The translations under genes were made by a program, and so were the position numbers. A DNA stretch of 64,000 nucleotides from Gammaproteobacteria bacterium. Its GTDB lineage: Bacteria > Pseudomonadota > Gammaproteobacteria > Ga0077536. A model generated the notes under the pieces. That model saw only the letters and a list, made by a program, of their open reading frames with translations, had not been told where the DNA came from and did not search any database. This document shows, piece by piece, positions 37,114-58,616 of the stretch. Location of the stretch: the NCBI GenBank assembly GCA_965216305.1, contig OZ244144.1, forward strand, positions 2,036,248-2,100,247. Reading direction: 5' to 3'. Position 1 is the stretch's first letter. Each line of letters starts with the position of its first letter.

Positions 37114-38244
37114 ATGAAATCCAAACGATCAGAGCTGCAAGGGAAAATCAAGCTTATGCTCGTTGCGGGCGCGCGGCCGAACTTCATGAAGATTGCACCT
37201 ATTATTAGGGCAATCGAAAAGAGTAAGGATTCATTCGATTATCAGCTAGTGCATACCGGGCAGCATTACGATGAAAAAATGAGCGGCGTGTTTTTCCGGG
37301 GGCTAGGTATACCGGAACCGGATCACAATTTAAACGTTGGCAGCGGAACACACGCTCAACAGACTGCCGCGATCATGATGGCGTTCGAGCCTGTACTTCA
37401 AGCTTACAATCCGGATTACGTACTTGTCGTCGGAGATGTGAACTCAACTCTTGCGTGTTCAATTGTGGCCAAAAAATTGGGCACGAAAGTGGCACATGTC
37501 GAGGCCGGCCTTCGAAGTGGCGACATGAATATGCCCGAGGAGATAAATCGTCTAGTAACTGATTCAATAAGCGATCAATTTTTTGTTACCGAAGAAAGCG
37601 GGATGGAGCATCTGCGCCGGGAGGGTAAATCCGAATCGGCTATTCACCACGTTGGCCATGTGATGATAGACAATCTGCTCTATGAGGTCGCTAAGCTGGA
37701 TAAGCGCGGTTACCAATCGATTCCGCTACTCGACCAGTTGCCGTCAAACGCCCAATACGGCGTAGTAACCCTGCATCGCCCGTCGAATGTTGATGATCAG
37801 AAGGTCCTGGCGCGTATTTTGGAAGCGTTGATTTCAATCAGCAAACGAATCCCGCTCATATTTCCGATTCATCCCCGTACCCGTGCAAATCTTGAGCAAT
37901 TCCAATTAGCCATTCCGCCTGAGATTGTTCTTACGGAACCGCTTCAATACGACGAGTTTTTGCAAGTCTGGCGTGGCGCGACGATCGTTTTAACGGACAG
38001 TGGTGGCTTGCAAGAAGAAACTACCGCTTTAGGCGTCCCGTGCCTCACACTTCGCGAAAACACTGAGCGACCTATAACGGTGGCTGAAGGTTCCAACAAG
38101 ATCGTTGGCACAGACCCTGAGGTGATTGTAAGAGCAGCACTCGCGATCATTGATGGGCCACCTGTTCGTGTACGAAAGCGACCAAAGCTCTGGGACGGCA
38201 AGTCCTCAGAACGAATTTTGCACCTTCTATCTGAGTCTTTGTAG
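37114..38244 (+). CDS. wecB: UDP-N-acetylglucosamine 2-epimerase (non-hydrolysing).
   Basis: Full-length WecB/MnaA-family sequence (…TGQHYD…, HVEAGLRS, …DSGGLQEE…). 376 aa. Confidence 0.9.
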   Translation: MKSKRSELQGKIKLMLVAGARPNFMKIAPIIRAIEKSKDSFDYQLVHTGQHYDEKMSGVFFRGLGIPEPDHNLNVGSGTHAQQTAAIMMAFEPVLQAYNPDYVLVVGDVNSTLACSIVAKKLGTKVAHVEAGLRSGDMNMPEEINRLVTDSISDQFFVTEESGMEHLRREGKSESAIHHVGHVMIDNLLYEVAKLDKRGYQSIPLLDQLPSNAQYGVVTLHRPSNVDDQKVLARILEALISISKRIPLIFPIHPRTRANLEQFQLAIPPEIVLTEPLQYDEFLQVWRGATIVLTDSGGLQEETTALGVPCLTLRENTERPITVAEGSNKIVGTDPEVIVRAALAIIDGPPVRVRKRPKLWDGKSSERILHLLSESL

Positions 38245-42862: not shown

Positions 42863-43825
42863 GTGGAGAAAGGACCGATATTTGTCGTTGGGCCGCCTCG
42901 TAGCGGCACGCACCTGATGCGTTATTGCTTGAGTCAGCATCCAAATGTCTATATTGGCCCAGAGTCTAACTTTTTCCAGGCGATCTATGGCAGCCGCACC
43001 GTCGTCCCAGATTCTCTAATTAAATCAAACAGCGGATTGATTCTGGAGATGCTGTTCGCCAGCGGCGACCCAAGCATGTCTGAATTTGAACCGAACAAAG
43101 ATGCGATCGAGAAATCGATCAAGATGCAGGCCAATAATTATCGAGAACTCTCCCGGATAATTTTTAGTAGTTTCGCAATTTACAAGCAGAAGCCACGATG
43201 GGGCGAGAAAACGCCGCTGCATCTATATTATCTGGATAAGCTGTTCGATTACTTCCCGAACGCAAGAGTCATTTGTATGCGGCGTGATCCGAAAAACATA
43301 ATCGCGTCCTACATAAAAAGTAGTCACATGCCTAATAGATTGTCATTCGCTATGGCTGAAGTCAGGCATTGCTGGAAAATTATGCAGCGTATTACTGACA
43401 AAAGATTACAAATCGTCGAGTACGAAGATCTGCTGGCAAACCCGTCCGCTACATTGCGAATGGTTTGTGATTTTTTGGATGAGGAATTTAAGGAGGCCAT
43501 GCTCAACCCAAAAATGCGGGATTCTTCATACAGTGGCGGGATCATGGAGTTCGACGAATCGATAAAAATCGAACAGGAACCCGGTGCAAACGAGAAATGG
43601 AAACGCGTATTGAGCGAAGAAGAGGCTCGCAGCGTCATGACATGGGTGAACGTGGGCGCGATATCGCTGTTTTCTCCCGAAGTTAGTTGGCTGCTAATTG
43701 GGCGCGCGATTATTGCGTCGTGGGTCTATCGTATGCGATTAATGAAGTCAAGAATGGGGCTTTTCCACTGGAAGCGCGTCGTGCAAGTAAGTCGGCGGCG
43801 CGCCGACTATCCGCAAGCGGATTAG
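42863..43825 (+). CDS. Sulfotransferase family protein (PAPS-dependent).
   Basis: 5'-PSB loop VVGPPRSGTHLM and 3'-PB motif RDPKNIIASY. About 320 aa, typical of the Sulfotransfer_3-like family. Hydrophobic C-terminal tail. Confidence 0.75.
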   Translation: MEKGPIFVVGPPRSGTHLMRYCLSQHPNVYIGPESNFFQAIYGSRTVVPDSLIKSNSGLILEMLFASGDPSMSEFEPNKDAIEKSIKMQANNYRELSRIIFSSFAIYKQKPRWGEKTPLHLYYLDKLFDYFPNARVICMRRDPKNIIASYIKSSHMPNRLSFAMAEVRHCWKIMQRITDKRLQIVEYEDLLANPSATLRMVCDFLDEEFKEAMLNPKMRDSSYSGGIMEFDESIKIEQEPGANEKWKRVLSEEEARSVMTWVNVGAISLFSPEVSWLLIGRAIIASWVYRMRLMKSRMGLFHWKRVVQVSRRRADYPQAD

Positions 43826-43858: not shown

Positions 43859-45106
43859 GTGAATATCTTATTCGTTGTGAACGAGGTGCCCTATCCGCCG
43901 GATAACGGTGTAAAGATCGTCTCCTATAACGCCATGCGAATGATGAGCGAAGCTGGGCACAACGTTAGTATTTGTGTTCTGTGCGAAAAGAGCCCTTCAT
44001 CGATTTCGGATTACGAATCGCTGTGTTCGGAGTTTGGAATCGAAAACAGGTGTATCGAATTCACCGACGAAAGTAAGAAACTGAGAAATATCGTGCGTAC
44101 CGCGTTATGCGGCAAGCTATATTTCATTGAGCGGTTCCGATCACTGTCGTTTCGGGTTGCGCTGGAGGTCTTGGTTGCGAAGTTTGAACCCGATGTTATT
44201 CATTTTGATCTGATCACCTTGTGTCAATACTATGATGTAGCCCCGCTCGGCATCGGAACTGTTGCGTCAATAAACGATTGCTATTCGCTCAAACTTGAGA
44301 ACTCGCTGGCTGCCGGGAATTACTCCGGAGTTGAAGTGCCGTATCGAGTTTGGCAACTTCGGCGGTCCAGAAAGTACGAATCGCAGATGTATCCAAATTT
44401 CGACTTCGTTCATGTGATGAGCGAAGTCGACAGCGGGTACCTCGAAAAGCTAAACCCGAAGATCGAAACGAGAGTTATTCCGAATGGTGTCAGTGCCGAG
44501 TTGTTCAATTTGCCACAGGTGAATAGCGCAAATGTCACAGTACTATTCATTGCTCATCTGGCTGGTGATAATTTGGTGTACTTGGCGAACCTTCTAGACA
44601 AATGTTGGCCGGTTGTCGCTCGTGAATTTCCCCAAAGCGTGTTGCGAATCGTAGGCAAGATTCCAGAGTCTTCACGTCCGCTACAAACGAAATACGAAAA
44701 CGTTGAGGGTGTGCGATTCGCTGGCTACGCCGAGAATCTTGTGGACGCCTACGAAGGATGTGATATCGCAGTTGTTCCCATTAATAAGAGCGGCGGCATT
44801 CTGAATAAGGCTATTGAGGCCATGGCGGCAGGCCTTGCGGTCGTTGGCTTCGACAAATCCTTCGCCGGAATCGCCGGTGCGCGTAGTGGACAACATTACC
44901 TAACCGCTAAAGATTATGAGGGAATAGGAGAGGTCTTGATTGCACTGATTCGAGACCAGAATCGTCGGGACGAGATACGAGCGCAGGCGCGTAAATTTGC
45001 TCGCGATAATTTTTCCTGGAACCAGCGTGTTGAGGCTTACGAGTCGATGTATTGGCAAGCTGCACGACTGTCGATCGAGAAGCGCAGCGGACATGGATCA
45101 ACGTAG
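43859..45106 (+). CDS. Glycosyltransferase family 4 (GT-B, Glycos_transf_1).
   Basis: C-terminal GT4 signature (…EGCDIAVVPINKSGGILNKAIEAMAAGLAVVG…). GTG start. Confidence 0.8.
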   Translation: MNILFVVNEVPYPPDNGVKIVSYNAMRMMSEAGHNVSICVLCEKSPSSISDYESLCSEFGIENRCIEFTDESKKLRNIVRTALCGKLYFIERFRSLSFRVALEVLVAKFEPDVIHFDLITLCQYYDVAPLGIGTVASINDCYSLKLENSLAAGNYSGVEVPYRVWQLRRSRKYESQMYPNFDFVHVMSEVDSGYLEKLNPKIETRVIPNGVSAELFNLPQVNSANVTVLFIAHLAGDNLVYLANLLDKCWPVVAREFPQSVLRIVGKIPESSRPLQTKYENVEGVRFAGYAENLVDAYEGCDIAVVPINKSGGILNKAIEAMAAGLAVVGFDKSFAGIAGARSGQHYLTAKDYEGIGEVLIALIRDQNRRDEIRAQARKFARDNFSWNQRVEAYESMYWQAARLSIEKRSGHGST

Positions 45107-45896
45107 TCAATTTCGAATTCACCTTGAAGCCGCTAAGCGGTTATTCATGGTCAATGCCCTTTCTGGTGTACTACCGCTTTACATCGTTACGGAATATCCG
45201 AAATCTGGCGGAACCTGGATATCTCAGGTTCTTTCGGAATGTTTGGGTATCCCCTTTCCTCGAAACAGGCCACCAAAACTTGAATCCTGCCTAATGCACG
45301 GCCACATGACTTTTTCGCCACTTATGAAAAACGTTGTCGTTGTACAACGCGACGGCAGAGACGTGATGATATCGTGGTATTACCATATGTTGTTTCAGCA
45401 TGATCGAAATACGCAACATCTCGTAGAAAAGACGAGGCAACGCCTAGCATTCCCTGATTTTGAGGATATTGAGGAGAACTTACCGAAGTTTATTGAGTAT
45501 GTTTTCGAGTCGGAGCAGCGATCTCGAAGTCCATTTCATTTCACGTGGAGCCAGTTCGTTGACAGCTGGCACGACAAAGATGTCCCGAAAGTAAGTTATG
45601 AGGAAATGATTGAGGGGCCTGTCCGTGCTGTACAGAACGTGATAGGGCGACTGGGGGTAGATGAAGTTGACGCCGAAACCGTAGCGACGATAGTTGATAA
45701 GTATAGCTTTCAGGCGCAATCACAGCGTGCGCCAGGTCAGGAGGATAAATCTAGTTTTCTCCGGCGTGGAAAGCCCGGTGATTGGAAGAACAAGTTTAAC
45801 CGACGTGCGGCAGAAGTTTTCGATCAACTGGCAGGAACTCAATTGGTCCAACTTGGGTACGAGCCAGATACAAGTTGGGTTAGGAAGCTCCTGTGA
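45093..45896 (+). CDS. Sulfotransferase (Sulfotransfer_1-like, PAPS-dependent).
   Basis: Trimmed to ATG 45093, which overlaps the GT4 end by 14 nt. 5'-PSB motif EYPKSGGTWISQVL. C-terminal RRGKPGDWKNKF matches the canonical RKGxxGDWKNxF sulfotransferase motif. Confidence 0.8.
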   Translation: MDQRSQFRIHLEAAKRLFMVNALSGVLPLYIVTEYPKSGGTWISQVLSECLGIPFPRNRPPKLESCLMHGHMTFSPLMKNVVVVQRDGRDVMISWYYHMLFQHDRNTQHLVEKTRQRLAFPDFEDIEENLPKFIEYVFESEQRSRSPFHFTWSQFVDSWHDKDVPKVSYEEMIEGPVRAVQNVIGRLGVDEVDAETVATIVDKYSFQAQSQRAPGQEDKSSFLRRGKPGDWKNKFNRRAAEVFDQLAGTQLVQLGYEPDTSWVRKLL

Positions 45897-47059
45897 CGTC
45901 TGACGCGAACGGGTACGATTTCTTGCTTAATGGCGCGTCGATAGTCGTCGGTGGCGGCATTCAATCGTGCTCTGCATTCGTTAGATATTTGATCGCCCGC
46001 GGGATTAGTGAACGCTGCTTCTTCGTCGTTTCGGATGAAATACATCAGGAACTATTGAAGTTTGGTGTGGATATTGCCTCGATGGGCGGGGTAGTTACGA
46101 TTGATGCGCCCTCGAAGCATCTCGCGACGAGACGTTTGCTCGCGGACGTAGAGCGAAAGTGTAAACCTGCGGTGGTGTTCACGTTCTTCGGTCCGTCTTA
46201 TGTCAAGTTTCGAGCTAAGCATATATGCGGTGTGGCTGACGGGTGGGTGACGCACTCCACTCCTTTGGCGTTTAAAACACTCCGAGGTTGGTCAGCGAAA
46301 TTGCGTATGCTTGCCGCGCTAATCTACAAAGCATTCCATTTTCGAAGAGCGGACTACTGGATAGTAGAGCACGACTGTGCGAAGCAAGGCCTTATCCGTC
46401 GGCTGAGGCTGGCGCCTGGTAAAATATCGGTCGTGCCAAATAATTGTGCACCCCATTACGTCGCCTCGACTGAACGGACTGTGCTCTTGGAGGAAACAGC
46501 CAAGTGCCGAATTCTGGTATTCGGGGCTTACTATCCGAATAAGCGGTTAGAAATCATTCCCCTGGTTGCAAAGGCCTTAAGATCGCTCGATCAAGAATTC
46601 TCGTTTGAATTCATCATCACTGTTAAACCTGGTCTGCCTATTTGCGATGAACTTGCTACGAGCTTGAAAAGGATCGGACTGAATCACAGCTTCAAAAATA
46701 TCGGACCGATTCCATTACGAGACGGGCCGGCGCTATACAGGTCGTGCGACGTCGTGTTTCACCCTTCGGTATTGGAAACGTTTTCGGCGGTATACCCGGA
46801 AGCAATGGCGATGGCTGTACCGATCGTTACCAGTGATCTAGATTTCGCTCGATCGATTTGCGGAGAAGGGGCACTTTATTTCAATCCAAACGATCCTGGC
46901 GATGCGGCAAAGAAGATTCACGAAGTTCACACAAATGTGAATGCTCGAAAGCGACTAATCGAGCGAGCGAGAAAGCGCCAATCTGATATGCCTACCATTG
47001 ATCAGAACCACAAGTCACTCGTAGACATCATTAGCGGTATCGTGGACCGTCACTCCTAA
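45893..47059 (+). CDS. Glycosyltransferase family 4.
   Basis: 388 aa. GT4 E-x7-E region (ETFSAVYPEAMAMAVPIVTSD). Overlaps neighbours by 4 and 1 nt, suggesting translational coupling. Confidence 0.75.
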   Translation: MTSDANGYDFLLNGASIVVGGGIQSCSAFVRYLIARGISERCFFVVSDEIHQELLKFGVDIASMGGVVTIDAPSKHLATRRLLADVERKCKPAVVFTFFGPSYVKFRAKHICGVADGWVTHSTPLAFKTLRGWSAKLRMLAALIYKAFHFRRADYWIVEHDCAKQGLIRRLRLAPGKISVVPNNCAPHYVASTERTVLLEETAKCRILVFGAYYPNKRLEIIPLVAKALRSLDQEFSFEFIITVKPGLPICDELATSLKRIGLNHSFKNIGPIPLRDGPALYRSCDVVFHPSVLETFSAVYPEAMAMAVPIVTSDLDFARSICGEGALYFNPNDPGDAAKKIHEVHTNVNARKRLIERARKRQSDMPTIDQNHKSLVDIISGIVDRHS

Positions 47060-48621
47060 TGAATACGCAAGATCTGCCAAACGTTCCCTTACCGGGCATT
47101 GATTATTACCGTGGCCAAGGTGATTTACGGATTAAGGTTGCCGTTTTTCTCAATGTATCGCGAATTGAAGGTCTATATTTCGAACGCGAGAAAAGTCTTA
47201 GGCTACTCTGGAACTATTGGCGCGAAATTGGCTTTAAGGCAGTTCTGACGAAGATCCGTTCGAGACACGCGGAGCGAGCGCGGAATGTCAAGTTTCTTTC
47301 GGTGGGAGTCGGCTACGTCGAGGAAGCGGATAGTGGCAGTCAGTTCGCGCGTGAACTGGTGATGTTCGTAGCACCTCAGCACCCGCGGTTATTGGATTCG
47401 ATTGTATTGTGCGAGGCGTTGGTGCATCGCATTACAAACGATCACGATCTCCCAGAAAAAGCCGGTGTGCTGATTCACGACGAGATTGATTCGAGTGTGT
47501 CGTCTGCGCTGGAACCTTTGTGTGGTTGGGACAAAATTTCCCAAACGCCGATTCCAGCCATCGATTGGTCGTTGATTTCGCGAATGTTACATGACCACAA
47601 TTATTCGGCCGCAAAAAGATATCGGAATAACGCTCGGGATTACCACGATATCTTACCCGCCAGCTTCCAACGGAAGACTTCGGGGAATGTAAAATACGCG
47701 ACTCTGTTCGGGTACGGAAATTACGCGAAGTCCGTTATTCTCGCAAACCTGCCTGACAGCTTAGTAGTGACACGCATACACGAACTGGATCCGATTCAGA
47801 TACCTCACCGGGAACGGCATGTAACATGGGATACGAGTCCAGGCCCGCGCACTAATGACGCTAATCGCGTATTTTTTACTGCCGGTTACCATCACACGCA
47901 CACGGATCAGGCGGTTATCTGCTTACGCTCGGGAGGCGACGCAGTAATCGAGAAACCGCTTGTGGTCAATGAACAGCAACTCTCCGACCTACTAGATGGC
48001 TTGCAGGCGTCCCGGGGACGCGCATTTGCGTGCTTCCAAAAGCGTTACAGTATATTTAACCAGCACGCGCGAGAGGATTTGGAGGTAGCCGAGGGCGAGC
48101 CGGTTTCGTACCACTGTATTGTTTACGAAGTTCCATTGCCGCCGTTGCACTGGTATCGGTGGCCCTCTTCGAGATCCAGACTCATATCCAATGGCTGCCA
48201 TTGGATTGATCACGCGCTGTATCTAAATGGATTCCCCGCGTTCGAAACCATTAGTGTTTTTCAGAGTTCTTCCTCAGAGATAAATGTGTCTGTTGAGTTT
48301 TCTAATGGAGCGTTCTTTACGATGATTCTTACAGACAAAGGGAGTTCGCGGATTGGTATGCAGGACTATGTTGAATTAAGGGCGAACGGAAAGACAGTCA
48401 AAATTGCGAATAGCACTAGCTATCAGAGCGAAAGCTCTGATCGAATTATCAGGAAATGTCGTGCTAATAAAATGAAAAGTTACGCAAATATGTATCGAAC
48501 GATTGGCCAAAGAATTTTAGGCGATGGCCCAGGAGACTCGCTTGAATCCGTCGTTAGTAGTTGCAAACTGACCGTTGAGTTGGATAAAAAAGCCGGCGGG
48601 ACTCAAGGGGTGCCCTCGTGA
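47059..48621 (+). CDS. Two-domain protein: uncharacterized N-terminal domain (~200 aa) fused to a Gfo/Idh/MocA-family NAD(P)-dependent oxidoreductase.
   Basis: C-terminal half has Rossmann GxGxxA (LFGYGNYAKS), the EKP motif (AVIEKPL) and a GCHWIDHALYL-type C-terminal-domain motif of the Gfo/Idh/MocA family. N-terminal 200 aa has no motif I recognise. Confidence 0.65.
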   Translation: MNTQDLPNVPLPGIDYYRGQGDLRIKVAVFLNVSRIEGLYFEREKSLRLLWNYWREIGFKAVLTKIRSRHAERARNVKFLSVGVGYVEEADSGSQFARELVMFVAPQHPRLLDSIVLCEALVHRITNDHDLPEKAGVLIHDEIDSSVSSALEPLCGWDKISQTPIPAIDWSLISRMLHDHNYSAAKRYRNNARDYHDILPASFQRKTSGNVKYATLFGYGNYAKSVILANLPDSLVVTRIHELDPIQIPHRERHVTWDTSPGPRTNDANRVFFTAGYHHTHTDQAVICLRSGGDAVIEKPLVVNEQQLSDLLDGLQASRGRAFACFQKRYSIFNQHAREDLEVAEGEPVSYHCIVYEVPLPPLHWYRWPSSRSRLISNGCHWIDHALYLNGFPAFETISVFQSSSSEINVSVEFSNGAFFTMILTDKGSSRIGMQDYVELRANGKTVKIANSTSYQSESSDRIIRKCRANKMKSYANMYRTIGQRILGDGPGDSLESVVSSCKLTVELDKKAGGTQGVPS

Positions 48622-48624
48622 AAA

Positions 48625-48866
48625 AACTCTTAACGGTCTACGCACTGGGACCACGATCGTTGAGTATTTACCGCCGCTAATGCCGTTGCTCGGGCAATTA
48701 TAAAGTCGCATGAGCGTTACGGTTATCTCTGCGGGGTCGAAGCGAATGTTAATGGGTTTTGGGAAAGGCAACCGTATCGCAAAAGCACGGCAACAACCCG
48801 ACAAGGGGAGGCAGGTGATAACAAAGCTGCGCACCGACGGTATTGTTCCCGCGGTCGATCTGGTTC
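48625..48866 (+). pseudogene. Decayed duplicate of the first ~80 codons of the downstream bi-domain oxidoreductase gene (gene remnant / recombination scar).
   Basis: Translating 48625-48866 gives K T L N G L R T G T T I V E Y L P P L M P L L G Q L * S R M S V T V I S A G S K R M L M G F G K G N R I A K A R Q Q P D K G R Q V I T K L R T D G I V P A V D L V R F G *. This aligns colinearly with MKQVLQDLSSGQTIVEDVPEPMPAPGALLIRTSRTLISAGTEKMLIDFGKGNLISKAMQQPDKVKQVLDKVRTDGLGPTLQTVRSKLG of the gene starting at 48959. The remnant has internal stop codons. Confidence 0.75.
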
Positions 48867-48958
48867 GGTTCGGCTAAGGTGCCCTTGCACGTAAACCGAT
48901 TGCTCGGACTGGCGGGTCCGATTTTCGCTATTCTAATTGAACCGTAAGATTTTCATAA

Positions 48959-51100
48959 ATGAAACAAGTACTTCAGGATTTGTCGTCAGGACAAACTATC
49001 GTTGAGGACGTCCCGGAACCAATGCCCGCGCCGGGCGCGTTACTGATCAGAACTTCCAGGACCTTAATTTCCGCGGGGACCGAGAAGATGCTTATAGATT
49101 TCGGGAAAGGGAACCTGATTTCGAAGGCGATGCAGCAACCCGATAAAGTGAAACAGGTTCTGGATAAGGTTAGAACGGATGGGCTCGGGCCCACGCTCCA
49201 AACCGTGCGTAGCAAGCTTGGTCAGCCGTTACCAACTGGCTACTGCAATGTCGGAGTTGCCGAATCCATTGGTGCTGGCGTGGCGGGTTTCGATGTAGGC
49301 GACCGAATTGCTTCAAATGGAAAGCACGCCGGTGTGGTCTCGGTTCCCCAAAACCTGTGCGCCAGGATCCCCGATTCAGTTCCCGATGACGAAGCGGCAT
49401 TTACAGTGGTGGGAGCCATAAGTCTCCAGGGCGTCCGCCTCGTTGCGCCTGCTTTAGGCGAATGTGTCGTCGTGATTGGCCTGGGGTTGATAGGTCTCAT
49501 CACCGTCCAACTCCTGCGGGCACATGGATGTCGGGTTCTCGGCATCGACTACGATTCGCGGAAGGTCGACATGGCCAAGGAGTTCGGTGCAACGGCAATC
49601 AATCTCGCGAGCGGTGATGACCCCATTGCTGCCGCAATGACCTTCTCGCGAAAGCGGGGTGTTGACGCAGTAATTATTACCGCTTCAACAAAGAGTAACG
49701 AACCGGTGCATCAGGCCGCGACGATGTGCCGGAAAAGGGGACGCATCGTTCTCGTCGGTGTGGTTGGTCTCGAACTATCGCGCGCCGACTTTTTCGAGAA
49801 GGAACTCACGTTCCAGGTCTCCTGCTCGTATGGCCCGGGTCGGTACGATCCGCGCTATGAGGAGGGCGGGCAGGATTACCCGGTGGGCTATGTCCGGTGG
49901 ACGGAACAGCGAAATTTCGAAGCGTTTCTGGACATGATTGCGGAGCGTCGTTTGGACATGCGGCCGCTAATTTCCCATCATTTCGATATTGAACGCGCAA
50001 CTGAAGCATACGACCTAATCAGCGGCGATTCGCCGTCGCTCGGCGTGCTCCTCCGCTATCCGAAGTCGGACGAAAACCCGCGACACGCAAATACAGTTGA
50101 ACTCGCAACCCGAGATCCGAAAGAACGGCCGGGCAATGCTACAGTTGGGTTCATCGGTGCAGGAAACTACGCGTCGCAAGTTCTGATTCCCGCGTTCGCG
50201 AAAACCGAGGCGCAGCTGCGTGCGGTTGTATCTGCGTCCGGAGTGAGCGCGGTACACATAGGCAAAACTTTCGCTATCTCACAAGCCTCGACCGACACGG
50301 ACGGGGTAATAAGCGACGAAGAGACGAACACCGTCGTAATAACAACACGGCATGATTCGCATGCGCGGCTGGTCTGCGCAGCATTGTCTGCAGCTAAAAG
50401 CGTGTTCGTCGAGAAACCGCTCGCTCTGAATAATGCGCAATTGGATCAGATCGCAGAGGCCTACGAGAGCGTCTCCGCTGACAAGGGCGTAAGACCGAAT
50501 TTGATGGTTGGGTTCAATCGACGTTTCTCCCCGCAAATTGTTGAGCTAAAACGTCTGCTGGATTCCACGAGCCAACCAAAGAGTTTTATTGTTACGGTAA
50601 ATGCTGGTGAAATTCCTCCTGAACATTGGACTCAGGACAAACACATCGGCGGCGGTAGAATTATCGGCGAGGCATGCCACTTCATTGACTTACTTCGTCA
50701 CCTCGCGGGCGTGCCGATTGCCGAGGTTCAGGCAGTCCGCATGGGTTCGAAACCCGGCGTGTCTACCCCGGATGACAAAGCAACGTTCACCCTGGCATTC
50801 GAAGACGGATCTTTTGGAACCGTGCATTATTTTGCTAACGGCAGCAAATCGTTTCCGAAAGAACGCATCGAGGTGTTCTCTGGTGGCGGTATTATCCAAC
50901 TCGACAATTTCCGCAAGATGAAAGGCTATGGCTGGCCTGGTTTCAAATCGATGAACCTCAGGCGTCAGGACAAGGGCAACGGTGCGTGCGTACAGGCGTT
51001 TGTGGACAGTGTCACCACCGGCGCCGAGTCTCCGATCCCATATAACGAATTAATGGAAGTCCATCGACGCACATTCCAAATCGCAGATCTGCTCGGCTGA
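48959..51100 (+). CDS. Bi-domain oxidoreductase: N-terminal Zn-dependent alcohol dehydrogenase (MDR) domain fused to a C-terminal Gfo/Idh/MocA oxidoreductase domain.
   Basis: 713 aa. Residues ~1-340 have MDR features (GroES-like fold, Rossmann VVIGLGLIGL). Residues ~380-713 have Gfo/Idh/MocA motifs (VGFIGAGNYAS, VFVEKPLA, GGRIIGEACHFIDLLRHL). Confidence 0.8.
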   Translation: MKQVLQDLSSGQTIVEDVPEPMPAPGALLIRTSRTLISAGTEKMLIDFGKGNLISKAMQQPDKVKQVLDKVRTDGLGPTLQTVRSKLGQPLPTGYCNVGVAESIGAGVAGFDVGDRIASNGKHAGVVSVPQNLCARIPDSVPDDEAAFTVVGAISLQGVRLVAPALGECVVVIGLGLIGLITVQLLRAHGCRVLGIDYDSRKVDMAKEFGATAINLASGDDPIAAAMTFSRKRGVDAVIITASTKSNEPVHQAATMCRKRGRIVLVGVVGLELSRADFFEKELTFQVSCSYGPGRYDPRYEEGGQDYPVGYVRWTEQRNFEAFLDMIAERRLDMRPLISHHFDIERATEAYDLISGDSPSLGVLLRYPKSDENPRHANTVELATRDPKERPGNATVGFIGAGNYASQVLIPAFAKTEAQLRAVVSASGVSAVHIGKTFAISQASTDTDGVISDEETNTVVITTRHDSHARLVCAALSAAKSVFVEKPLALNNAQLDQIAEAYESVSADKGVRPNLMVGFNRRFSPQIVELKRLLDSTSQPKSFIVTVNAGEIPPEHWTQDKHIGGGRIIGEACHFIDLLRHLAGVPIAEVQAVRMGSKPGVSTPDDKATFTLAFEDGSFGTVHYFANGSKSFPKERIEVFSGGGIIQLDNFRKMKGYGWPGFKSMNLRRQDKGNGACVQAFVDSVTTGAESPIPYNELMEVHRRTFQIADLLG

Positions 51101-52770
51101 TGAGTTTCAACAAGCTGTGCCGTTACTGGCGCACGGTTAAGTATTTAAAGGCAAGCCAGATACTCTTCTACGGCATTCGGCGGGGGCTGAAATTTCCCCG
51201 CCGATTATCGCCGCCGCGTTCTCCCTCTATAAGGCGCGGTTTTGCGTTGCAACCGCCGTTGCCCGCAAAGACCACATACAGTCCGAAGGCTTGTTTCGTG
51301 TTCCTTCGCCGGGAACTCGATTTCGGCGAATTCATCGACTGGAACTGCTCTGAAATGCCCGCGCTGTGGCGATATAACCTGCATTATTTCGACTACCTGC
51401 GCCAGGAGCAGATGCCGCTCGAGCAAGGTCTTGCGTTAATTAATGACTGGATTCTGCGTCACAGCCACATTGACGGCATCGGCTGGCACCCCTACCCGAC
51501 GTCATTGCGACTCGTTAACTGGATTTACTTTCTTTCCTCAGAACCGGGCGATTCGGTGCTTGAGCGGCAAATCGTGGACAGCATCGCAACGCAGGCCGAG
51601 TGGCTACACAAGAACGTTGAGTACCACATTCTCGCCAATCACTTGTTCGAAAACGCGAAGGGGCTGCTATTCGCCGGTGCATTTCTGGGCGGTGCTATTG
51701 GAAATAAACACATCAAAAGAGGGCTCGGGATCTTACGGACCGAGCTCGACGAGCAATTCCTTGACGACGGGGGGCATTATGAGCGTACCCCGATGTATCA
51801 CGCCATACTGACTCAAGATCTACTCGATTTGAGTAATCTGTTTTCAAGTAACCCGGGAATATTCACACAGGGCGACCTCGATGCCGTGAATGGCCGCGCC
51901 CGCCTGGCGCTCGATTTTCTCGATGCGCTGGATCCGCCGGACAGTTCAACGCTCTTCTTTAATGATTCGACGAATGCGATCGCGCCGGAGCCGCCGCAAC
52001 TGATGCAATTCGCCCGTCGGCTCATGGATTATCCTGATCCGGGCAGGCCGCGAGACCTGGGTGTTATGCCGTTTGCTAGCTCGGGTTACTACATCGTACG
52101 GGAACCCGGCAATCTTCTGGTGTTCGATTGCGGCGAAATTGGCCCGGATTACCAGCCGGGTCATGCTCACTGTGACACACTGAGCTATGAGTACTTTTTA
52201 AATGGCCGTAAAGTCATCACGAATTGTGGAAACTTTGATTACGAAACGAGCGATGAGCGACAGTTCGCGCGCAGCACGGCAGCACACAACACAGTTGTCG
52301 TCGATGGGGAAGAGCAATCAGAGGTTTGGGGCGCATTCAGGGTCGCACGGCGAGCGCGGCCAGTTTATGCGACGTTAACCCGCATTGACCCCGCTCATGC
52401 CAGGTTCAGCGGTGCGCACAACGGCTATCAACGCTTGCGTCCGGGGGCGATTCACGAGCGCACGATGGACTACTTCCGCGGCGGTGCATTCAGGGTTGAA
52501 GATACAATAGCGGCAGAAAGTACACATAGCGTCGAGAGCTACGTACATTTCGTAGCTGGTATGCGAATTGTGCCGACAGAAGAGGGGTTCCTGATCTTCG
52601 ATGAGTATGAAGAACTCGTTTTGAAACTCACTCCATTTGGTGCCGACGCCGTGGAAGTTGTTGCTTCAATACGATTTCCCGAATTCGGTGTGAAGGAAGA
52701 CGCAATGTCGATCAGGATCCGAAAATCCGGCGCCGCTCCTTTCAGCTTCGGATATGAAGTAACGCCATAA
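51100..52770 (+). CDS. Heparinase II/III-like family protein, cytoplasmic (no signal peptide); candidate polymer/sugar-modifying lyase or uronyl epimerase.
   Basis: 556 aa. Central region with the conserved W/H/Y-rich alpha-toroid (WHPYPTSLRLVNWIY..., HILANHLFENAKGL, GGHYERTPMYH) and a C-terminal beta-sandwich (GHAHCDTLSYEYF...AAHNTVVVDG) typical of the Hepar_II_III family. ATGA overlap with the upstream gene. Confidence 0.7.
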   Translation: MSFNKLCRYWRTVKYLKASQILFYGIRRGLKFPRRLSPPRSPSIRRGFALQPPLPAKTTYSPKACFVFLRRELDFGEFIDWNCSEMPALWRYNLHYFDYLRQEQMPLEQGLALINDWILRHSHIDGIGWHPYPTSLRLVNWIYFLSSEPGDSVLERQIVDSIATQAEWLHKNVEYHILANHLFENAKGLLFAGAFLGGAIGNKHIKRGLGILRTELDEQFLDDGGHYERTPMYHAILTQDLLDLSNLFSSNPGIFTQGDLDAVNGRARLALDFLDALDPPDSSTLFFNDSTNAIAPEPPQLMQFARRLMDYPDPGRPRDLGVMPFASSGYYIVREPGNLLVFDCGEIGPDYQPGHAHCDTLSYEYFLNGRKVITNCGNFDYETSDERQFARSTAAHNTVVVDGEEQSEVWGAFRVARRARPVYATLTRIDPAHARFSGAHNGYQRLRPGAIHERTMDYFRGGAFRVEDTIAAESTHSVESYVHFVAGMRIVPTEEGFLIFDEYEELVLKLTPFGADAVEVVASIRFPEFGVKEDAMSIRIRKSGAAPFSFGYEVTP

Positions 52771-52904
52771 AGAGTGCGAACTACGTTCTAATACCCTTAT
52801 TTTTCATGCATTTGACATAGAAACTAAACTATACTCGGCCGCTCGAAATTTCATCGGCCGCATCATTTGAGTGCGGGTACGTAACGGCAATTGGCGCGGC
52901 ATTC

Positions 52905-54161
52905 ATGCGGATCCTGTTTCTCTCCCACTATTTTCCTCCGGAAGTTAACGCCCCGGCATCGCGGACGTTTGAGCACTGCCGCGAATGGGTTCGCCTCGGC
53001 CATGAGGTTACCGTCGTAACTTGCGCGCCGAATCATCCGCGAGGCCAGGTCTACGACGGCTACCGTAATCGCTTGTTTCAACGTGAAGAAATCGAAGGCA
53101 TAAACGTAATCAGGGTTTGGACCTATCTTTCCGCGAACGAGGGTTTTATCAAGCGCACCATGAATTACGTCTCGTTCATGCTGGCCTGCATTTTCACGGT
53201 GCCGGGCATGCCGAAGTGCGATATCGTGATCTCGACGTCTCCGCAGTTCTTTAATGGATTAGCCGGTTTTTTCGTCAGTCGTCTGAAATCGGCGCCCTGG
53301 CTACTCGAAATCAGAGACCTTTGGCCGGAGTCCATTCTGGCAGTAGGCGCCATAACAAATACCACCTTGATTCGCAGCCTGCGCTGGCTCGAATCGTTCG
53401 CTTACCGAAAGTGCAACCACATAGTGCCGGTAACGGATGCTTTCAGGCGACATATGCTCGACATGGGAATTGCCGCGGACAAGATTACAGTAATCAAGAA
53501 TGGCGCTTCCCTGGATTTCTACGACGACACTAACTCGGACGGTGGTTTGCGAACTCAGTTGGGGTTACAGGACAAGTTCATTGCGGCGTATTTTGGTACC
53601 CACGGAATGGCGCACCATCTCGAAACAGTCCTGGAAGCTGCAGCAGAACTCCAAGACAATGAACACGTCGTATTCTTGCTCGTTGGTGATGGTGCGGAAC
53701 GAGTCAGGCTCGAACAGCAACTGGCATCCATGAAGCTAGATAACGTAATGATGCTTGGTCAACAGCCGAAAGAAAAAATGCCAGCATTGTGGGCGATGAG
53801 CGACGCAAGTTTAGTGCTGCTGCGACGGACCGACCTGTTCAAAACGGTCATTCCATCGAAAATATTCGAAGCGATGGCGATGGCAAAGCCGATTATCCTT
53901 GGTGTCGAAGGTGAGTCGAAAGAAATCGTTGAAACTGCCGGAGCAGGGATTGCGATACCCCCCGAAGACGCCAAGGCGCTTGCGTCGGCTGTCTCGACAC
54001 TCGCCGAAGACGCCGGCGCCTGTGAGTCTTATGGCCGCAATGGCAAGTCCTATGTGCACGAATATTTTGACCGTAAGGTGCTTGCGAAACGATACGAGGG
54101 CTTACTTGCGGAAGTGGCGAAATCGCGTAACGCACAAGGAATGAAGAGGAAAGCAAATTGA
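52905..54161 (+). CDS. Glycosyltransferase family 4 (WbuB/WcaI-like).
   Basis: 418 aa. N-terminal MRILFLSHYFPPEVNAPASR is typical of WbuB-like GT4. C-terminal E-x7-E (EAMAMAKPIILGVEGESKE). Confidence 0.85.
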   Translation: MRILFLSHYFPPEVNAPASRTFEHCREWVRLGHEVTVVTCAPNHPRGQVYDGYRNRLFQREEIEGINVIRVWTYLSANEGFIKRTMNYVSFMLACIFTVPGMPKCDIVISTSPQFFNGLAGFFVSRLKSAPWLLEIRDLWPESILAVGAITNTTLIRSLRWLESFAYRKCNHIVPVTDAFRRHMLDMGIAADKITVIKNGASLDFYDDTNSDGGLRTQLGLQDKFIAAYFGTHGMAHHLETVLEAAAELQDNEHVVFLLVGDGAERVRLEQQLASMKLDNVMMLGQQPKEKMPALWAMSDASLVLLRRTDLFKTVIPSKIFEAMAMAKPIILGVEGESKEIVETAGAGIAIPPEDAKALASAVSTLAEDAGACESYGRNGKSYVHEYFDRKVLAKRYEGLLAEVAKSRNAQGMKRKAN

Positions 54162-55732
54162 ACACAGCCGCCACGCAGTATTGGAAGAATTCGACGCTCG
54201 GCTGGCTTTTAGTCATTGTCGCTGCGTCGGCCGGTGCGTATATCTTCTACGAAAGCGTCGAATTAATGGTGAGTTGGTGGTCGAATCGCGAAGAATACAG
54301 CCACGGTTTCCTTATTCCGCTGATCACCGTCTACCTTATTTGGCAGCGCAGCGACCAATTGCGCAAGATTGAGTTCTCGGGGTCGTGGCTCGGTGTTCTG
54401 GTCGTCTTATTTGGCCTGTTTCTGTATTTTCTGGGTGAACTCAGCACAATCTACACGGTTGTGCAGTACGGTTTTGTGCTGGTGATTTACGGTGTTGTCT
54501 GGGCATACATCGGCACGAAGGCTTTCAAGGTAGTAGCCATCCCCCTGCTGCTGCTCTTCTTCATGATCCCGTTCCCCAACTTCATCTACAACAACCTCTC
54601 CTCCCAGCTCCAACTGCTTTCTTCCGAAATCGGCGTTGCCGTAATCCGCCTGTTCGGCATCAGCGTATTCCTCGAAGGCAATGTCATCGATCTCGGAACG
54701 TACAAGCTCCAGGTCGTCGAAGCGTGCAACGGCTTGCGCTATCTGTTTCCGCTGATGACGCTTGGCCTGATCGTGGCCTATCTCTATCACGCAGCGTTAT
54801 GGAAGCGCGCGATTATTTTCTTCTCGACAATTCCTATCACGATCCTGATGAACAGTTTCCGGATCGGCGTGATCGGTGTGATGGTGGAGTACTGGGGGCA
54901 GTCGATGGCGGAGGGGTTCCTCCACGACTTCGAGGGCTGGGTAATCTTTATGGCGTGTTTCGGGATCTTGTTCCTGGAAATGTGGCTATTGATGCGCATT
55001 ACGAAGGATAAACGGCCGCTCAACGAGGTGTTCGGTATCGATCCGCCCGAGCCTGTTGATGAGAACGCCCAATGGCGTACCCGCCCGTTGCCGGTGACGA
55101 TGATAGTAGCCACCGTGCTGATCGTGGGCGCCCTGGTGCCGGCTACGGCGATTCCTAACCGGGTTGAATCCGTTCCCGAGCGCGAATCATTCGCGACGTT
55201 CCCGTTGTCGTTCGATGGTTGGACGGGACGGTCGGAAACGCTGGAACAAATCTACCTCGACGCGCTCAAGCTCACGGACTACGCGCTCATTAACTATACG
55301 AACGACACGGACAACGTCGTGAATTTCTATGCAGCGTACTACGCGTCGCAGCGTAAGGGTCAGTCCGCTCATTCGCCGCGCTCGTGCATACCGGGTGGCG
55401 GCTGGCGCATCGAGTCGCTCACACAGGTTTCGGTGCCGGAAGGCGCACCGGGGGGCGGGGATTTGCCGGTGAACCGGGTACTGATTACGAACGGCAATCA
55501 CAAACAACTCGTCTACTACTGGTTTCAGCAGCGGGGTCGGATCATCACGAATGAATACCTCGTGAAGTGGTTCGTGTTCTGGGATGCGATGACGAAGAAC
55601 CGCACGGATGGATCCTTGATCCGGTTGACGATACCGATTGCTCCGGGCAAGGACGTCGATGAACTTGAGAAGTTGTTGCGCAAGTTCGCCCGCGATGCCC
55701 GCGACATCCTGCCGGCCTACGTGCCTGGGTAG
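54158..55732 (+). CDS. xrtA: Exosortase A (XrtA) fused to a C-terminal EpsI-family domain.
   Basis: N-terminal ~300 aa with 8 TM helices and exosortase active-site Cys motif (VVEACNGLRYLFP) plus conserved Arg/Asn positions. C-terminal ~200 aa periplasmic domain resembling EpsI. TTG start with AAGAGGAAAG RBS, overlapping the upstream stop. Confidence 0.8.
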   Translation: MNTAATQYWKNSTLGWLLVIVAASAGAYIFYESVELMVSWWSNREEYSHGFLIPLITVYLIWQRSDQLRKIEFSGSWLGVLVVLFGLFLYFLGELSTIYTVVQYGFVLVIYGVVWAYIGTKAFKVVAIPLLLLFFMIPFPNFIYNNLSSQLQLLSSEIGVAVIRLFGISVFLEGNVIDLGTYKLQVVEACNGLRYLFPLMTLGLIVAYLYHAALWKRAIIFFSTIPITILMNSFRIGVIGVMVEYWGQSMAEGFLHDFEGWVIFMACFGILFLEMWLLMRITKDKRPLNEVFGIDPPEPVDENAQWRTRPLPVTMIVATVLIVGALVPATAIPNRVESVPERESFATFPLSFDGWTGRSETLEQIYLDALKLTDYALINYTNDTDNVVNFYAAYYASQRKGQSAHSPRSCIPGGGWRIESLTQVSVPEGAPGGGDLPVNRVLITNGNHKQLVYYWFQQRGRIITNEYLVKWFVFWDAMTKNRTDGSLIRLTIPIAPGKDVDELEKLLRKFARDARDILPAYVPG

Positions 55733-55738
55733 ACATCC

Positions 55739-57391
55739 ATGCTGTCGTTCTTCACCTTCATCATCGCGATGTTCATTACGATGGTGTTGATTCCGCCGTT
55801 GATGCGCTCGGCCGAAAAATTATCGTTCATCGATGCGCCCGGCGAGCGCAAGGTTCACGAAATCCCGATCCCGCGCATTGGCGGCGTCGCGATGGTGGCC
55901 GGTGCGGTAACGCCGATACTCATGTGGGTAGAGCGTCCGCCGCTTGTGCTCGCGTTTCTCGTGGGGATTGGGATTATTCTGGTTTTCGGCGTTTGGGACG
56001 ATCGCAAGGCGCTCGATTTCAGGTTGAAATTCCTCGGGCAATTTCTCGCGATCAGCGTGGTCGTGATTTATGGCGGTGTCGAGATCCGCTATTTGCCATT
56101 TCACAGTATCGATCCCGTGCCGGCCTACGTGTCGATCCCGTTTACGTATTTTGCCTTGCTCGGGGTGACGAATGCGATCAATCTCGCGGACGGCCTCGAC
56201 GGCCTGGCGGGCGGTACGATGCTCCTCAGCATTGCGGCCATCGGACTGCTCGCGTTCCTGGCCGGTGACGATCTGCTCGTGATCTTTTGCCTCGCCGTGA
56301 TGGGCAGCATCATCGGCTTTCTGCGCTACAACACGTATCCCGCGCAGGTTTTCATGGGCGACTGCGGCAGCCAGTTTCTTGGTTTTTCGGTGGGTGTGCT
56401 TGTGATCATTCTCACCCAAACCAGCAATCCGGCGCTGAGCCCGTCCATGACGTTACTAATACTCGGGCTACCGATCGTCGACACCTTCATCGTGATGGGG
56501 CAGCGAGTATACGAGGGACGCTCGCCGTTCAAGCCCGATCGCAATCACGTGCATCATCGTCTGCTCGAATTCGGCTTCGATCACTATGAAGCCGTGCTTA
56601 TCATTTATATCGCGCAGGCCGCGCTAGTAACCAGCGCATTCGTCTTCCGCTTCGAAACGGATCTGTTCAATTTGCTTGTGTTTGCCGCGGCGATGGTTGG
56701 CATTCTTTTCGCGTTCAACACCGCGGAAAGACTTGGCTGGTCGGCACATGGCAGCCTTGGCGCGGGGTCGCGCACGCAGTTGGGTACGTTCGTGCGCAGG
56801 CTGCGGGCGAGCGGCGTGTTGTCAGACTACCCGGTGGTATTCGTCGCGGTAGCCGTGCCGTGCTATCTGCTGTACGCAATTATGCATTCAGGTCAGATCC
56901 CGCTGGATGGCACCGTCTCATCGCTCGTGCTGTTCATCATTGCCGCGGCAGCGCTGGCGTTGTTTCGGCAATCCGAGGGGATTCATCTGATCGAGCGCGT
57001 GGTGGTTTACGTCGCGGCAACGATGGCCGTGTATTACTGGCATACCACCACCATGCGCTACCAGGGTCCGTACAGCTTCGAAAACGTGTTCTTCCTGCTG
57101 CTCACAACCGCGATTGTCGTGAGCTATCGCTTTGCTCAACCGCGCAAGTTCACCGTCACCCCAACGGATTTTCTCGTGATCTTCCTCGCCGTTGTCGCGC
57201 CGGGGCTGCTCGGATCGCTGGTGACACAAAGCAATATCATGGCGATCGGCGCGAAAACCGTCATTTTGTTCTATGCGATCGAAATGCTCATCGCCCGCTC
57301 GCTCGGGCGCGAACTCGTGTATCGCAGTGCCGTTGCCGGGATTCTTGCGCTGATGACGCTGAAGTGTGGAATCAATCCCGCGTTGTTCTGA
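55739..57391 (+). CDS. Polyprenyl-phosphate N-acetylhexosamine-1-phosphate transferase (WecA/WbpL/MraY-family initiating enzyme) with extended C-terminal membrane domain.
   Basis: PNPT signature motifs (GVWDD, NAINLADGLDGLAGG, VFMGDCGSQFLGF, DRNHVHHRLL). 550 aa versus about 350 aa for canonical WecA; the extra ~200 aa form additional TM helices. Confidence 0.8.
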   Translation: MLSFFTFIIAMFITMVLIPPLMRSAEKLSFIDAPGERKVHEIPIPRIGGVAMVAGAVTPILMWVERPPLVLAFLVGIGIILVFGVWDDRKALDFRLKFLGQFLAISVVVIYGGVEIRYLPFHSIDPVPAYVSIPFTYFALLGVTNAINLADGLDGLAGGTMLLSIAAIGLLAFLAGDDLLVIFCLAVMGSIIGFLRYNTYPAQVFMGDCGSQFLGFSVGVLVIILTQTSNPALSPSMTLLILGLPIVDTFIVMGQRVYEGRSPFKPDRNHVHHRLLEFGFDHYEAVLIIYIAQAALVTSAFVFRFETDLFNLLVFAAAMVGILFAFNTAERLGWSAHGSLGAGSRTQLGTFVRRLRASGVLSDYPVVFVAVAVPCYLLYAIMHSGQIPLDGTVSSLVLFIIAAAALALFRQSEGIHLIERVVVYVAATMAVYYWHTTTMRYQGPYSFENVFFLLLTTAIVVSYRFAQPRKFTVTPTDFLVIFLAVVAPGLLGSLVTQSNIMAIGAKTVILFYAIEMLIARSLGRELVYRSAVAGILALMTLKCGINPALF

Positions 57392-57517
57392 TCGTTCGCC
57401 ACGGCGCAGGCCCATATTAGAACGCTCGTTCGACAGCGAAACCCCGGTGTTTTTTTAGCAGCCACGCATCGCATCGAGTAGAATCCGCGCGTCCACATTC
57501 CAATCGGCAACAGGTTC

Positions 57518-58609
57518 ATGACGAAGAAAATCGCACTCATCACCGGAGTCACCGGCCAGGACGGCGCCTACCTGTCGGAGTTTCTGATCAAAAAAGGTTA
57601 CGAGGTGCACGGTATCAAGCGCCGCTCATCAAGCTTTAATACAAATCGAATCGACCATCTCTACCAGGATCCGCACACCGCGAATGCGAATTTCGTGCTC
57701 CATTACGGTGATCTCACCGACGCGACGAATCTGATCCGGATTGTGCAGGAAGTGCAACCGGACGAAATTTACAACCTCGCGGCCCAGAGTCACGTGGCGG
57801 TCTCGTTCGAAACACCGGAATACACCGCGAACGCCGATGCGCTCGGCACGCTGCGATTGCTCGAGGCGATCCGGATCCTCGGGCGCGAAGAACAAACCCG
57901 TTTTTACCAGGCGTCCACGAGCGAAATGTACGGTGCCGTACGCGAAGTGCCGCAAACGGAATCCACGCCGTTCTATCCGCGCAGCCCGTATGGCGCAGCG
58001 AAGGTTTATGCCTACTGGATTTGCGTGAACTACCGCGAGGCCTACAACATGTTTTGCTGTAACGGGATCCTGTTCAATCATGAATCCCCGATCCGGGGTG
58101 AGACGTTCGTTACCCGTAAAATCACGCGGGCCGCGGCGCGGATCAGCCTTGGACTGCAGGACATTCTGTATCTCGGCAACATGGATTCGCTGCGCGACTG
58201 GGGCCATGCCCGCGATTACGTCGAAGCGATGTGGCTGATGCTGCAACAGGACGAGCCGGACGACTACGTCGTGGCCACCGGCAAACAGGTTTCCGTGCGC
58301 GATTTTGCGGAAATGGCGTTTGCGGAAGTGGGGATCCGGATCGAATGGCGCGGCGAAGGGGTGAAAGAAGAGGGCGTTGATGCCAAGACCGGGATCGTCC
58401 GGATAGCGGTCGACCCGCGCTATTTTCGCCCGACGGAAGTTGAAACGCTGCTGGGGGATCCGAGTAAGGCGCAGGAAAAACTCGGCTGGCGCGCGCGGAC
58501 GTCGCTGTCGGTGATGGTGAAGGAAATGATGGCCGACGACGTGAATGGCGCGGAGAAAGACGAGATGCTCCGCCGTGAAGGCTTCCAGACGTTCGACTAT
58601 TTCGAGTAA
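57518..58609 (+). CDS. gmd: GDP-mannose 4,6-dehydratase.
   Basis: N-terminal [28 protein letters not shown] and active-site STSEMYG plus Yxxx K region. 363 aa. Confidence 0.95.
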
Positions 58610-58616
58610 GCATACG

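Follow-up and report, generated by a model that had tools for sequence, protein, structure and literature searches.

Introduction

The closest described relatives of the system considered here are GnlA and GnlB of Acinetobacter baumannii capsule (K) loci, which are named after WeeE and WeeF from the emulsan cluster of A. venetianus RAG-1; the pair, under either name, is postulated to make the UDP-activated form of 2-acetamido-2-deoxy-L-galacturonic acid (UDP-L-GalNAcA). According to the supplement of a 2026 preprint, GnlA has ADH_N, Rossmann and GH188 (Gfo-type) matches, and GnlB carries Hepar_II_III_C and PL12 assignments with 4fnv as its best match in the Protein Data Bank (PDB). Here we analyze a stretch of 64,000 nucleotides from a gammaproteobacterium (contig OZ244144.1, positions 2,036,248 to 2,100,247; hereafter the window), in which an exopolysaccharide (EPS) locus holds three consecutive genes on the + strand at 47059-52770, here called g1, g2 and g3. 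An earlier reading of the letters alone (the original prediction) had put these open reading frames (ORFs) forward as an unexplained module; their succession and exact coordinates are borne out, but to call them unexplained was an overstatement, since homologues carry the GnlA/GnlB (WeeE/WeeF) names and a postulated function, and occur in the EPS operon of Ralstonia solanacearum as well. The g2 and g3 products have the same architecture as GnlA and GnlB, a fusion of a medium-chain dehydrogenase/reductase (MDR) with a Gfo/Idh/MocA oxidoreductase beside a PL12-like protein, a likeness drawn through published domain and PDB matches. The cassette is already known and widespread, and the window holds a variant of it with different subfamilies of g3 and of the adjoining GT4-type glycosyltransferase (GT) and with an added g1.

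In R. solanacearum the order g2 homologue, heparinase-like gene and GT4 gene is found in the EPS operon of the megaplasmid (locus L170, CP047137.1; 132 Ralstonia records). The operon begins with a phosphatase, a kinase, a 2-epimerase, wecC, two transporters, a GT and an acyltransferase, and continues with a Gfo/Idh/MocA protein (714 aa), a heparinase (611 aa), a GT (417 aa), a sugar transferase, an acetyltransferase and an aminotransferase. Its Gfo/Idh/MocA protein is 60% identical to g2 over 712 aa, the heparinase-like protein shares its catalytic positions with g3, and the GT two genes upstream of the g2 homologue is 27% identical, over the full length, to the 388-aa GT that precedes g1 in the window. 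Ralstonia EPS I reportedly contains L-GalNAcA, N-acetylgalactosamine and a bacillosamine derivative. A 2023 paper states that the pathway of Ralstonia EPS has not been elucidated. The window locus differs from both the Acinetobacter and Ralstonia systems in its g3 and GT4 subfamilies, in the extra paralogue g1 and in having no wecC/mnaB within the window. It is also an XrtD/exosortase EPS locus with sulfotransferases, whereas GnlA/GnlB come from a capsule locus and WeeE/WeeF from an emulsan locus.

A step of the kind that we propose for g3 was described for VpsJ of Vibrio cholerae, which a 2026 study proposed to be a C5-epimerase converting N-acetylmannosaminuronic acid (ManNAcA) to 2-acetamido-2-deoxy-L-guluronic acid (L-GulNAcA) on a bactoprenyl-linked disaccharide. 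The likeness, by description, lies in the inversion at C5 of an N-acetylhexosaminuronic acid while the repeat unit is assembled in the cytoplasm, with a WecB/WecC-type feed. For the window we propose a reading that we hold to be about evenly poised between right and wrong, namely that g2, g3 and the downstream GT4 may form a cytoplasmic cassette which starts from a D-2-acetamido sugar of the N-acetylglucosamine (GlcNAc)/N-acetylmannosamine (ManNAc) series, in all likelihood as the uronic acid, turns it into an L-GalNAcA-type residue and builds this into the repeat unit.

Results

The genes of the cassette and those next to it are the following:

45893..47059, + strand: GT4-type glycosyltransferase, 388 aa (Pfam Glycos_transf_1)
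47059..48621, + strand: g1, Gfo/Idh/MocA-fold oxidoreductase, 520 aa
48620..48868, + strand: pseudogene remnant of the 5' end of a g2-type gene, codons 2-84 (blastx)
48959..51100, + strand: g2, bi-domain oxidoreductase, 713 aa, with MDR at aa 1-390 and Gfo/Idh/MocA at aa 395-713 (Pfam)
51100..52770, + strand: g3, heparinase-III-fold (PL12-like) protein, 556 aa (Pfam Hepar_II_III_N and Hepar_II_III_C)
52905..54161, + strand: GT4 glycosyltransferase, WcaI-like, 418 aa (Pfam GT4 domains; NCBIfam WcaI 206 bits, below the cut-off of 276)

By ORF coordinates, the stop of the upstream GT overlaps the start of g1, and that of g2 overlaps the start of g3 by 1 nt.

The fold of g3 is an (alpha/alpha) toroid with a beta-sandwich, as in PL12, and its structure is predicted with a local distance difference score (pLDDT) of 88.5. 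Residues N180, H181, Y233, H234, H355, H357, Y381 and H396 are invariant among 32 homologues and are kept in those of Ralstonia and of IncC plasmids. The catalytic Asn/His, Tyr/His and His positions, of which the original prediction had proposed to inspect the His and Tyr, belong to this invariant set and align with the motifs of heparinase III (HepIII). As that prediction also noted, the protein has no signal peptide; no transmembrane segment was found either, and judged by its sequence g3 is cytoplasmic. It lies in an EPS biosynthesis operon, coupled to g2, and carries no export signal, so that a degradative periplasmic lyase, already thought unlikely, is ruled out by localization and context. 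The characterized heparinases III of family PL12 (Bacteroides BT4657, 5jmf/5jmd; Pedobacter HepIII, 4mmh) differ in that g3 is without a secretion signal, is ~100 aa shorter and resides in a biosynthetic operon instead of a degradative locus, and the sequence similarity is marginal (E 1e-9). Against the NCBIfam HepC equivalog models g3 scores 39 and 33 bits, where the cut-offs are 700 and 600. Fold and catalytic layout are also shared with dermatan sulfate (DS) epimerase 1 (human DS-epi1, PDB 6hzn), although this is a eukaryotic Golgi-luminal glycoprotein acting on finished polymer and has no detectable sequence similarity to the cytoplasmic g3, whose substrate is most likely a sugar linked to a nucleotide or a lipid. 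The authors of the DS-epimerase 1 structure argue that small active-site changes turn a lyase into an epimerase.

Looking up the exact sequence of g3 returned no record. The family is nevertheless large, with more than 4,800 cluster representatives at E <= 1e-3 among the matches listed and at least 594 loci in species-representative genomes. A second subfamily of heparinase-like proteins, ~610 aa long (L170, L096, L099, L104, L150 and L163), is 41-55% identical internally and ~23% identical to g3; it keeps the catalytic residues and differs at six positions that are invariant in the g3 subfamily. It is paired with a different GT4 subfamily, while the adjacent g2 is ~60% identical in both groups. 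In other words, the subfamily of g3 co-varies with that of the neighboring GT4, which suggests a shared substrate or a complex, possibly on a lipid-linked disaccharide. The near-uniform g2, ~60% identical everywhere, suggests in turn that this enzyme acts on an invariant nucleotide sugar.

The description of g2 as a 713-aa fusion of an MDR-type alcohol dehydrogenase (ADH) with a Gfo/Idh/MocA oxidoreductase agrees with Pfam, which finds ADH_zinc_N and both the N- and C-terminal GFO_IDH_MocA domains. The MDR domain lacks the ligands of the catalytic zinc, with SAGTE and GYC replacing CGSD and GHE in the alignment, and of these residues S38, G40, T41, E42, G94 and Y95 do not vary within the family, the mean column identity of which is 70% across Nitrospirota, Planctomycetota and several proteobacterial classes. 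In g2 the Rossmann strand-helix makes the sole hydrophobic peak. An invariant Cys-His pair takes the position of the catalytic His in the Gfo domains of both g1 (C380-H381, CHWID) and g2 (C573-H574, CHFID), and the cysteine could have a role in the chemistry, for example as a thiohemiacetal in aldehyde oxidation. Both Gfo domains resemble the UDP-sugar 3-dehydrogenases GnnA and WlbA. Unlike the fusion protein g2, WlbA/WbpB and GnnA are single-domain enzymes (~310-350 aa) which feed a transaminase, and the g2-g3 cassette is without an aminotransferase. We also considered that g2 merely substitutes for WecC; this is ruled out, as Ralstonia and several other loci carry both.

To what extent the genes belong together was counted from both sides. 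Around g3 we took 46 genome loci in which the homologue is flanked by 5 kb or more on each side. The most constant partner was the WcaI-like GT4, found directly downstream in 40 of them with 45-71% identity; g2 preceded g3 in 31, a UDP-GlcNAc 2-epimerase (45-62% identity) was near the g3/GT4 cassette in 21, and an AsnB-like amidotransferase near g3 in 11. Counting from g2, we took 49 metagenome loci that extend 2 kb or more downstream of it, and in 41 of these a heparinase-like gene lay within ~3 kb on that side: 26 adjacent, 10 nearby and 5 divergent, the last having been missed by the BLAST filter and confirmed by Pfam. These counts define the conserved unit as g2-g3-GT4, with or without the 2-epimerase, which is found across many phyla in loci for polysaccharide biosynthesis. 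The module of the original prediction thus stands in so far as its genes co-occur widely, and its limits have to be redrawn, because full-length g1 was present in only 2 of the 46 genome loci and in 0 of 56 metagenome loci. Adjacency of g1, g2 and g3 recurs in unrelated genomes and is therefore not due to chance. Homologues of g3 at loci without g2 sit with wecB and wecC or with another nucleoside diphosphate (NDP)-sugar dehydrogenase, and these 6-dehydrogenases point to a uronic acid as the substrate of g3. Homologues of the WecA-like transferase of the window follow the cassette in ~20 of 83 loci.

Two further kinds of genes were observed near the cassette. AsnB-like amidotransferases are present in 17 of the 83 loci (L011, L014, L028 and others), and CapK/PaaK-like adenylate-forming enzymes in 9 (L008, L010, L012 and others), where they often lie directly upstream of g2. 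Enzymes of both types commonly act on carboxyl groups, in keeping with a uronic acid as the product.

Parts of the cassette are also carried on plasmids. Conjugative IncC resistance plasmids are one example: in E. coli (L088, pCRE10.2, NZ_CP034402.1 57183-76781), Enterobacter and Citrobacter they hold part of a surface-polysaccharide cluster, flanked by IS26, which codes for wecB, wecC, DUF2837, a polymerase, a GT, an "alginate lyase family protein" that is 35% identical to g3, a GT4 that is 46% identical to that of the window, and a nucleotidyltransferase. A Sulfitobacter plasmid holds wecB, a heparinase-like gene, a GT4 and an NDP-sugar dehydrogenase.

A contig of a sister strain from another sample (L004) is 97.9% identical in DNA to the window (51334-62770 versus 10238-21674 of L004). 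The proteins of its GT4, XrtD, WecA-like and GDP-mannose dehydratase genes are 100% identical to those of the window, and its g3 is 78% identical. To the left of this stretch the variable region of L004 is another one, which codes for a pyruvyl transferase, Wzy and a GT2 and is without g1, g2 and the sulfotransferases. This looks like serotype-like variation of the EPS locus with a breakpoint inside g3, and it indicates that the three genes are separable.

The g1 product was expected to be a Gfo/Idh/MocA oxidoreductase with an N-terminal domain of ~200 aa without recognizable motifs, and this is what we found: the N-domain of ~205 aa has no Pfam family or PDB sequence match and is followed by a Gfo/Idh/MocA fold at aa ~210-520. 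The latter has an N-terminal Rossmann domain with GxGxxG/A, the EKP motif and a C-terminal alpha/beta domain, and at aa 216-451 it is paralogous to the Gfo domain of g2 (BLASTP E 5e-12). At the Pfam gathering threshold (PF01408 and PF02894 included) and in NCBIfam g1 gave no match, but many homologues have a precomputed PF01408, and we conclude from its sequence that g1 is a divergent member of Gfo/Idh/MocA. The 205-aa N-domain is kept throughout a family of 726 homologues which span the full length, and invariant residues are present in both domains; a hydrophobic N-terminus and a transmembrane segment were not found. A profile-profile comparison (hhalign, P 2e-4) gives a weak alignment of this domain to the GroES-like N-domain of g2, helical insertion included, with a score of 32.5 versus a maximum of 24.0 over 20 column shuffles. 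Hence g1 is probably a g2 paralogue in which the GroES-like and Gfo domains were kept and the MDR Rossmann domain was lost.

All sampled g1 homologues lie directly upstream of g2, and g1 is a rare optional add-on of the cassette. The spacer between g1 and g2 is only ~35-50 bp elsewhere (L005-L007, where a ~380-aa GT occupies the place before g1 that the 388-aa GT has in the window). In the window it measures 337 bp and holds an 83-codon remnant (48620-48868) with 53% identity to g2 aa 2-84 (blastx, E 3e-24) and one in-frame stop. Apparently, to judge from this remnant, an older g2 that abutted g1 was replaced by the present g2 through recombination.

The remaining genes of the locus that bear on the cassette are listed below:

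37114..38244, + strand: UDP-GlcNAc 2-epimerase, non-hydrolysing, WecB family (Pfam Epimerase_2 E 6e-106; NCBIfam TIGR00236 wecB 313 bits, cut-off 210)
38150-39544, + strand: right-handed beta-helix protein, 464 aa (Beta_helix; Pect-lyase_RHGA_epim)
42863-43825 and 44997-45896, + strand: two sulfotransferase genes (one NoeE-like, one Sulfotransfer_1)
54158-55732, + strand: XrtD (VPLPA-CTERM) exosortase fused to an EpsI domain (599 bits)
55739..57391, + strand: WecA/MraY-family polyprenyl-phosphate HexNAc-1-P transferase, 550 aa (Pfam Glycos_transf_4; NCBIfam WecA 167 bits, below the cut-off)

Pfam and NCBIfam matches further identify a PEP-CTERM-system ATPase, a Wza-like exporter, a chain-length determinant and a tyrosine kinase, and the locus also codes for a flippase-like protein, an acetyltransferase and several GT4 enzymes; the WecA-like gene is followed on its 3' side by a GDP-mannose dehydratase and then a PrsT-like TPR protein. 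It is a Wzx/Wzy-type EPS locus of the exosortase kind. The locus coincides with a low-G+C island of ~24 kb (window ~32000-56000, 48-54% or, by a tighter figure, 49-52% G+C against a background of ~60%), which suggests horizontal acquisition or exchange. The WecB-type 2-epimerase is the probable entry step to the ManNAc series, and the WecA-like transferase the probable initiator that makes the acceptor. Because two sulfotransferase genes lie within the locus, the polymer is probably sulfated.

As called, the second sulfotransferase ORF overlaps the preceding GT ORF by ~110 bp, so the start codon of one of them was probably placed too far upstream, and the beta-helix ORF and the 2-epimerase gene share ~95 bp. 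The beta-helix protein could be a lyase or an epimerase acting on the exported polymer. Although the xrtD gene lies midway in the EPS locus, no ORF for a VPLPA-CTERM substrate of XrtD was found in the 64-kb window; in related loci a ~230-aa VPLPA-CTERM protein is coded between the GT4 and xrtD (L021 12579-13241).

Discussion

It is known that, in Fischer projection, inverting D-manno at C5 alone leads to L-gulo and inverting it at both C3 and C5 to L-galacto; GDP-mannose 3,5-epimerase works on this principle. UDP-D-ManNAcA, the joint product of WecB and WecC, is thus two inversions away from UDP-L-GalNAcA, and the two proteins g2 and g3 may be suited to one inversion each. A two-headed NAD(P) enzyme would be appropriate for inverting a secondary alcohol by oxidation and re-reduction, and a heparinase-type site, by analogy to DS-epimerase 1, for abstracting the C5 proton beside a carboxylate, with re-protonation giving the epimer. 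In the route that we propose, the WecB-type 2-epimerase would give UDP-ManNAc, and a 6-dehydrogenase coded outside the window would convert it to the uronic acid. Inversion at C3 would be the task of g2, whose Gfo/Idh/MocA domain would oxidize the 3-OH and whose zinc-ligand-free MDR domain would return the hydride to the opposite face. With its heparinase-III catalytic set, g3 would abstract the proton at C5, beside the carboxylate, and return it with no elimination taking place, that is, act as a C5-epimerase. The WcaI-like GT4 would then move the L-sugar onto the HexNAc-PP-undecaprenol provided by the WecA-like enzyme; alternatively, the GT would act first and g3 on the lipid-linked disaccharide. 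Where g1 is present, in a minority of loci, it would, as our guess, probably add one further redox step. The biosynthetic and epimerase-leaning interpretation of the original prediction was, in this respect, largely right. A C5-epimerase would also explain why g3 occurs with wecB/wecC in the absence of g2, the product there being the 5-epimer of the L-GulNAcA type.

Several observations weigh against this proposal. No UDP-ManNAc or UDP-GlcNAc 6-dehydrogenase is present in the 64-kb window, and of 62 loci with a g3 of this subfamily only 9 have one nearby; without a carboxylate, C5 chemistry of the lyase type has no obvious basis. Either the missing 6-dehydrogenase is coded elsewhere, or this g3 subfamily uses a neutral sugar through a 4-keto intermediate. 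The g3 of the window is only 23% identical to the Ralstonia heparinase and differs from it at the six positions invariant in its own subfamily, so the substrates of the two may differ. The sister strain belongs to the same species and has g3 and the GT4 but neither g1 nor g2, and the role of g3 is to that extent independent of g2. The assignment of GnlAB/WeeEF is itself a postulate, and the 2026 preprint sees a different role in the heparinase fold of GnlB. Finally, the roles of the two g2 domains and the target carbon cannot be read from the sequence.

One alternative, which would fit the missing dehydrogenase, is a neutral-sugar route, which we consider rather improbable. Here g2 would oxidize C4 of UDP-GlcNAc or UDP-ManNAc, g3 would be a 3,5-epimerase acting on the 4-keto sugar in the manner of RmlC, GME or FnlA, and the second domain of g2 would reduce C4, so that an L-HexNAc such as L-GalNAc or L-TalNAc is formed with no uronate; the WecB-type enzyme would come at the end, as FnlC does in L-FucNAc synthesis, and transfer of the L-sugar would fall to the WcaI/WbuB-like GT4. 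Such a route would need no 6-dehydrogenase, in agreement with its absence from the window and from most loci of this g3 subfamily, and the 2-epimerases linked to the subfamily make up a group of their own, only ~33% identical to the wecC-linked ones. The WcaI family, which the GT4 of the window resembles, transfers L-fucose or L-FucNAc. For a locus in which gnlB stands by itself, moreover, L-GalNAc is the sugar that the Acinetobacter curators predicted. However, the conserved residues of g3 are those that neutralize and deprotonate the uronate in heparinase III, g2 is just as conserved (~60%) in operons with wecC, suggesting one common substrate, and the g3 homologues without g2 adjoin NDP-sugar 6-dehydrogenases.

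It is quite unlikely, in our judgment, that g3 really works as a lyase or dehydratase in the cytoplasm, giving a 4,5-unsaturated uronate, in which case the Gfo domain of g2 would oxidize C3 to an enone and the MDR domain would reduce the C=C bond as enoyl reductases do, leaving a 4-deoxy or rearranged sugar. The full lyase catalytic set of g3 and the zinc-ligand-free MDR domain of g2 agree with it, missing zinc ligands being typical of ene-reductase-type MDRs, but a lyase needs a 4-O-linked leaving group and a nucleotide sugar has none. In addition, g3 also occurs without g2, and in the Acinetobacter and Ralstonia systems, the two homologous ones of known composition, the polymer is reported to contain L-GalNAcA and not a 4-deoxy sugar. 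Least likely of all is that g3 is a housekeeping or quality-control lyase which, on the cytoplasmic side, cleaves mis-assembled or stalled undecaprenyl-linked oligosaccharide or polymer and recycles the carrier, comparable to clearing by AlgL, with g1 and g2 as unrelated dehydrogenases adjacent by chance. The lyase fold and residues of g3 and the sister strain that has g3 without g1 and g2 agree with this. Against it, the translational coupling of g2 and g3 and their reciprocal linkage across phyla point to a single pathway, the g3 subfamily changes together with that of the adjacent GT, as expected of enzymes sharing a substrate, and AlgL-type lyases are periplasmic while g3 has no export signal.

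The L-GalNAcA cassette described above could, in addition, be part of something broader, a doubtful but conceivable extension in which g3 would represent a large unrecognized family of cytoplasmic uronyl C5-epimerases with the PL12/DS-epimerase fold that act, at the face of the membrane, on the undecaprenyl-linked disaccharide made by the co-evolving GT4, with g2 as a two-headed redox 3-epimerase and g1 as a third redox inversion. The product would be a sulfated, L-hexuronate-containing, glycosaminoglycan-like EPS. If this were true, such an EPS route would be without characterized precedent, and the g3 family would be a candidate prokaryotic relative of the animal DS-epimerases.

Sugars of the L-GalNAcA/L-GulNAcA type are found in emulsan, in a number of capsules and in the EPS of R. 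solanacearum, which contributes strongly to the virulence of that species. For the synthesis of these L-hexosaminuronic acids in bacteria the cassette offers a concrete, testable two-enzyme hypothesis. The family of g3 is routinely labelled "heparinase" or "alginate lyase", and genome and CAZyme surveys that follow these labels count degradative capacity wrongly. If the proposed cassette is correct, a polysaccharide-lyase fold would have been recruited for biosynthesis in bacteria, as it was for DS-epimerase in animals.

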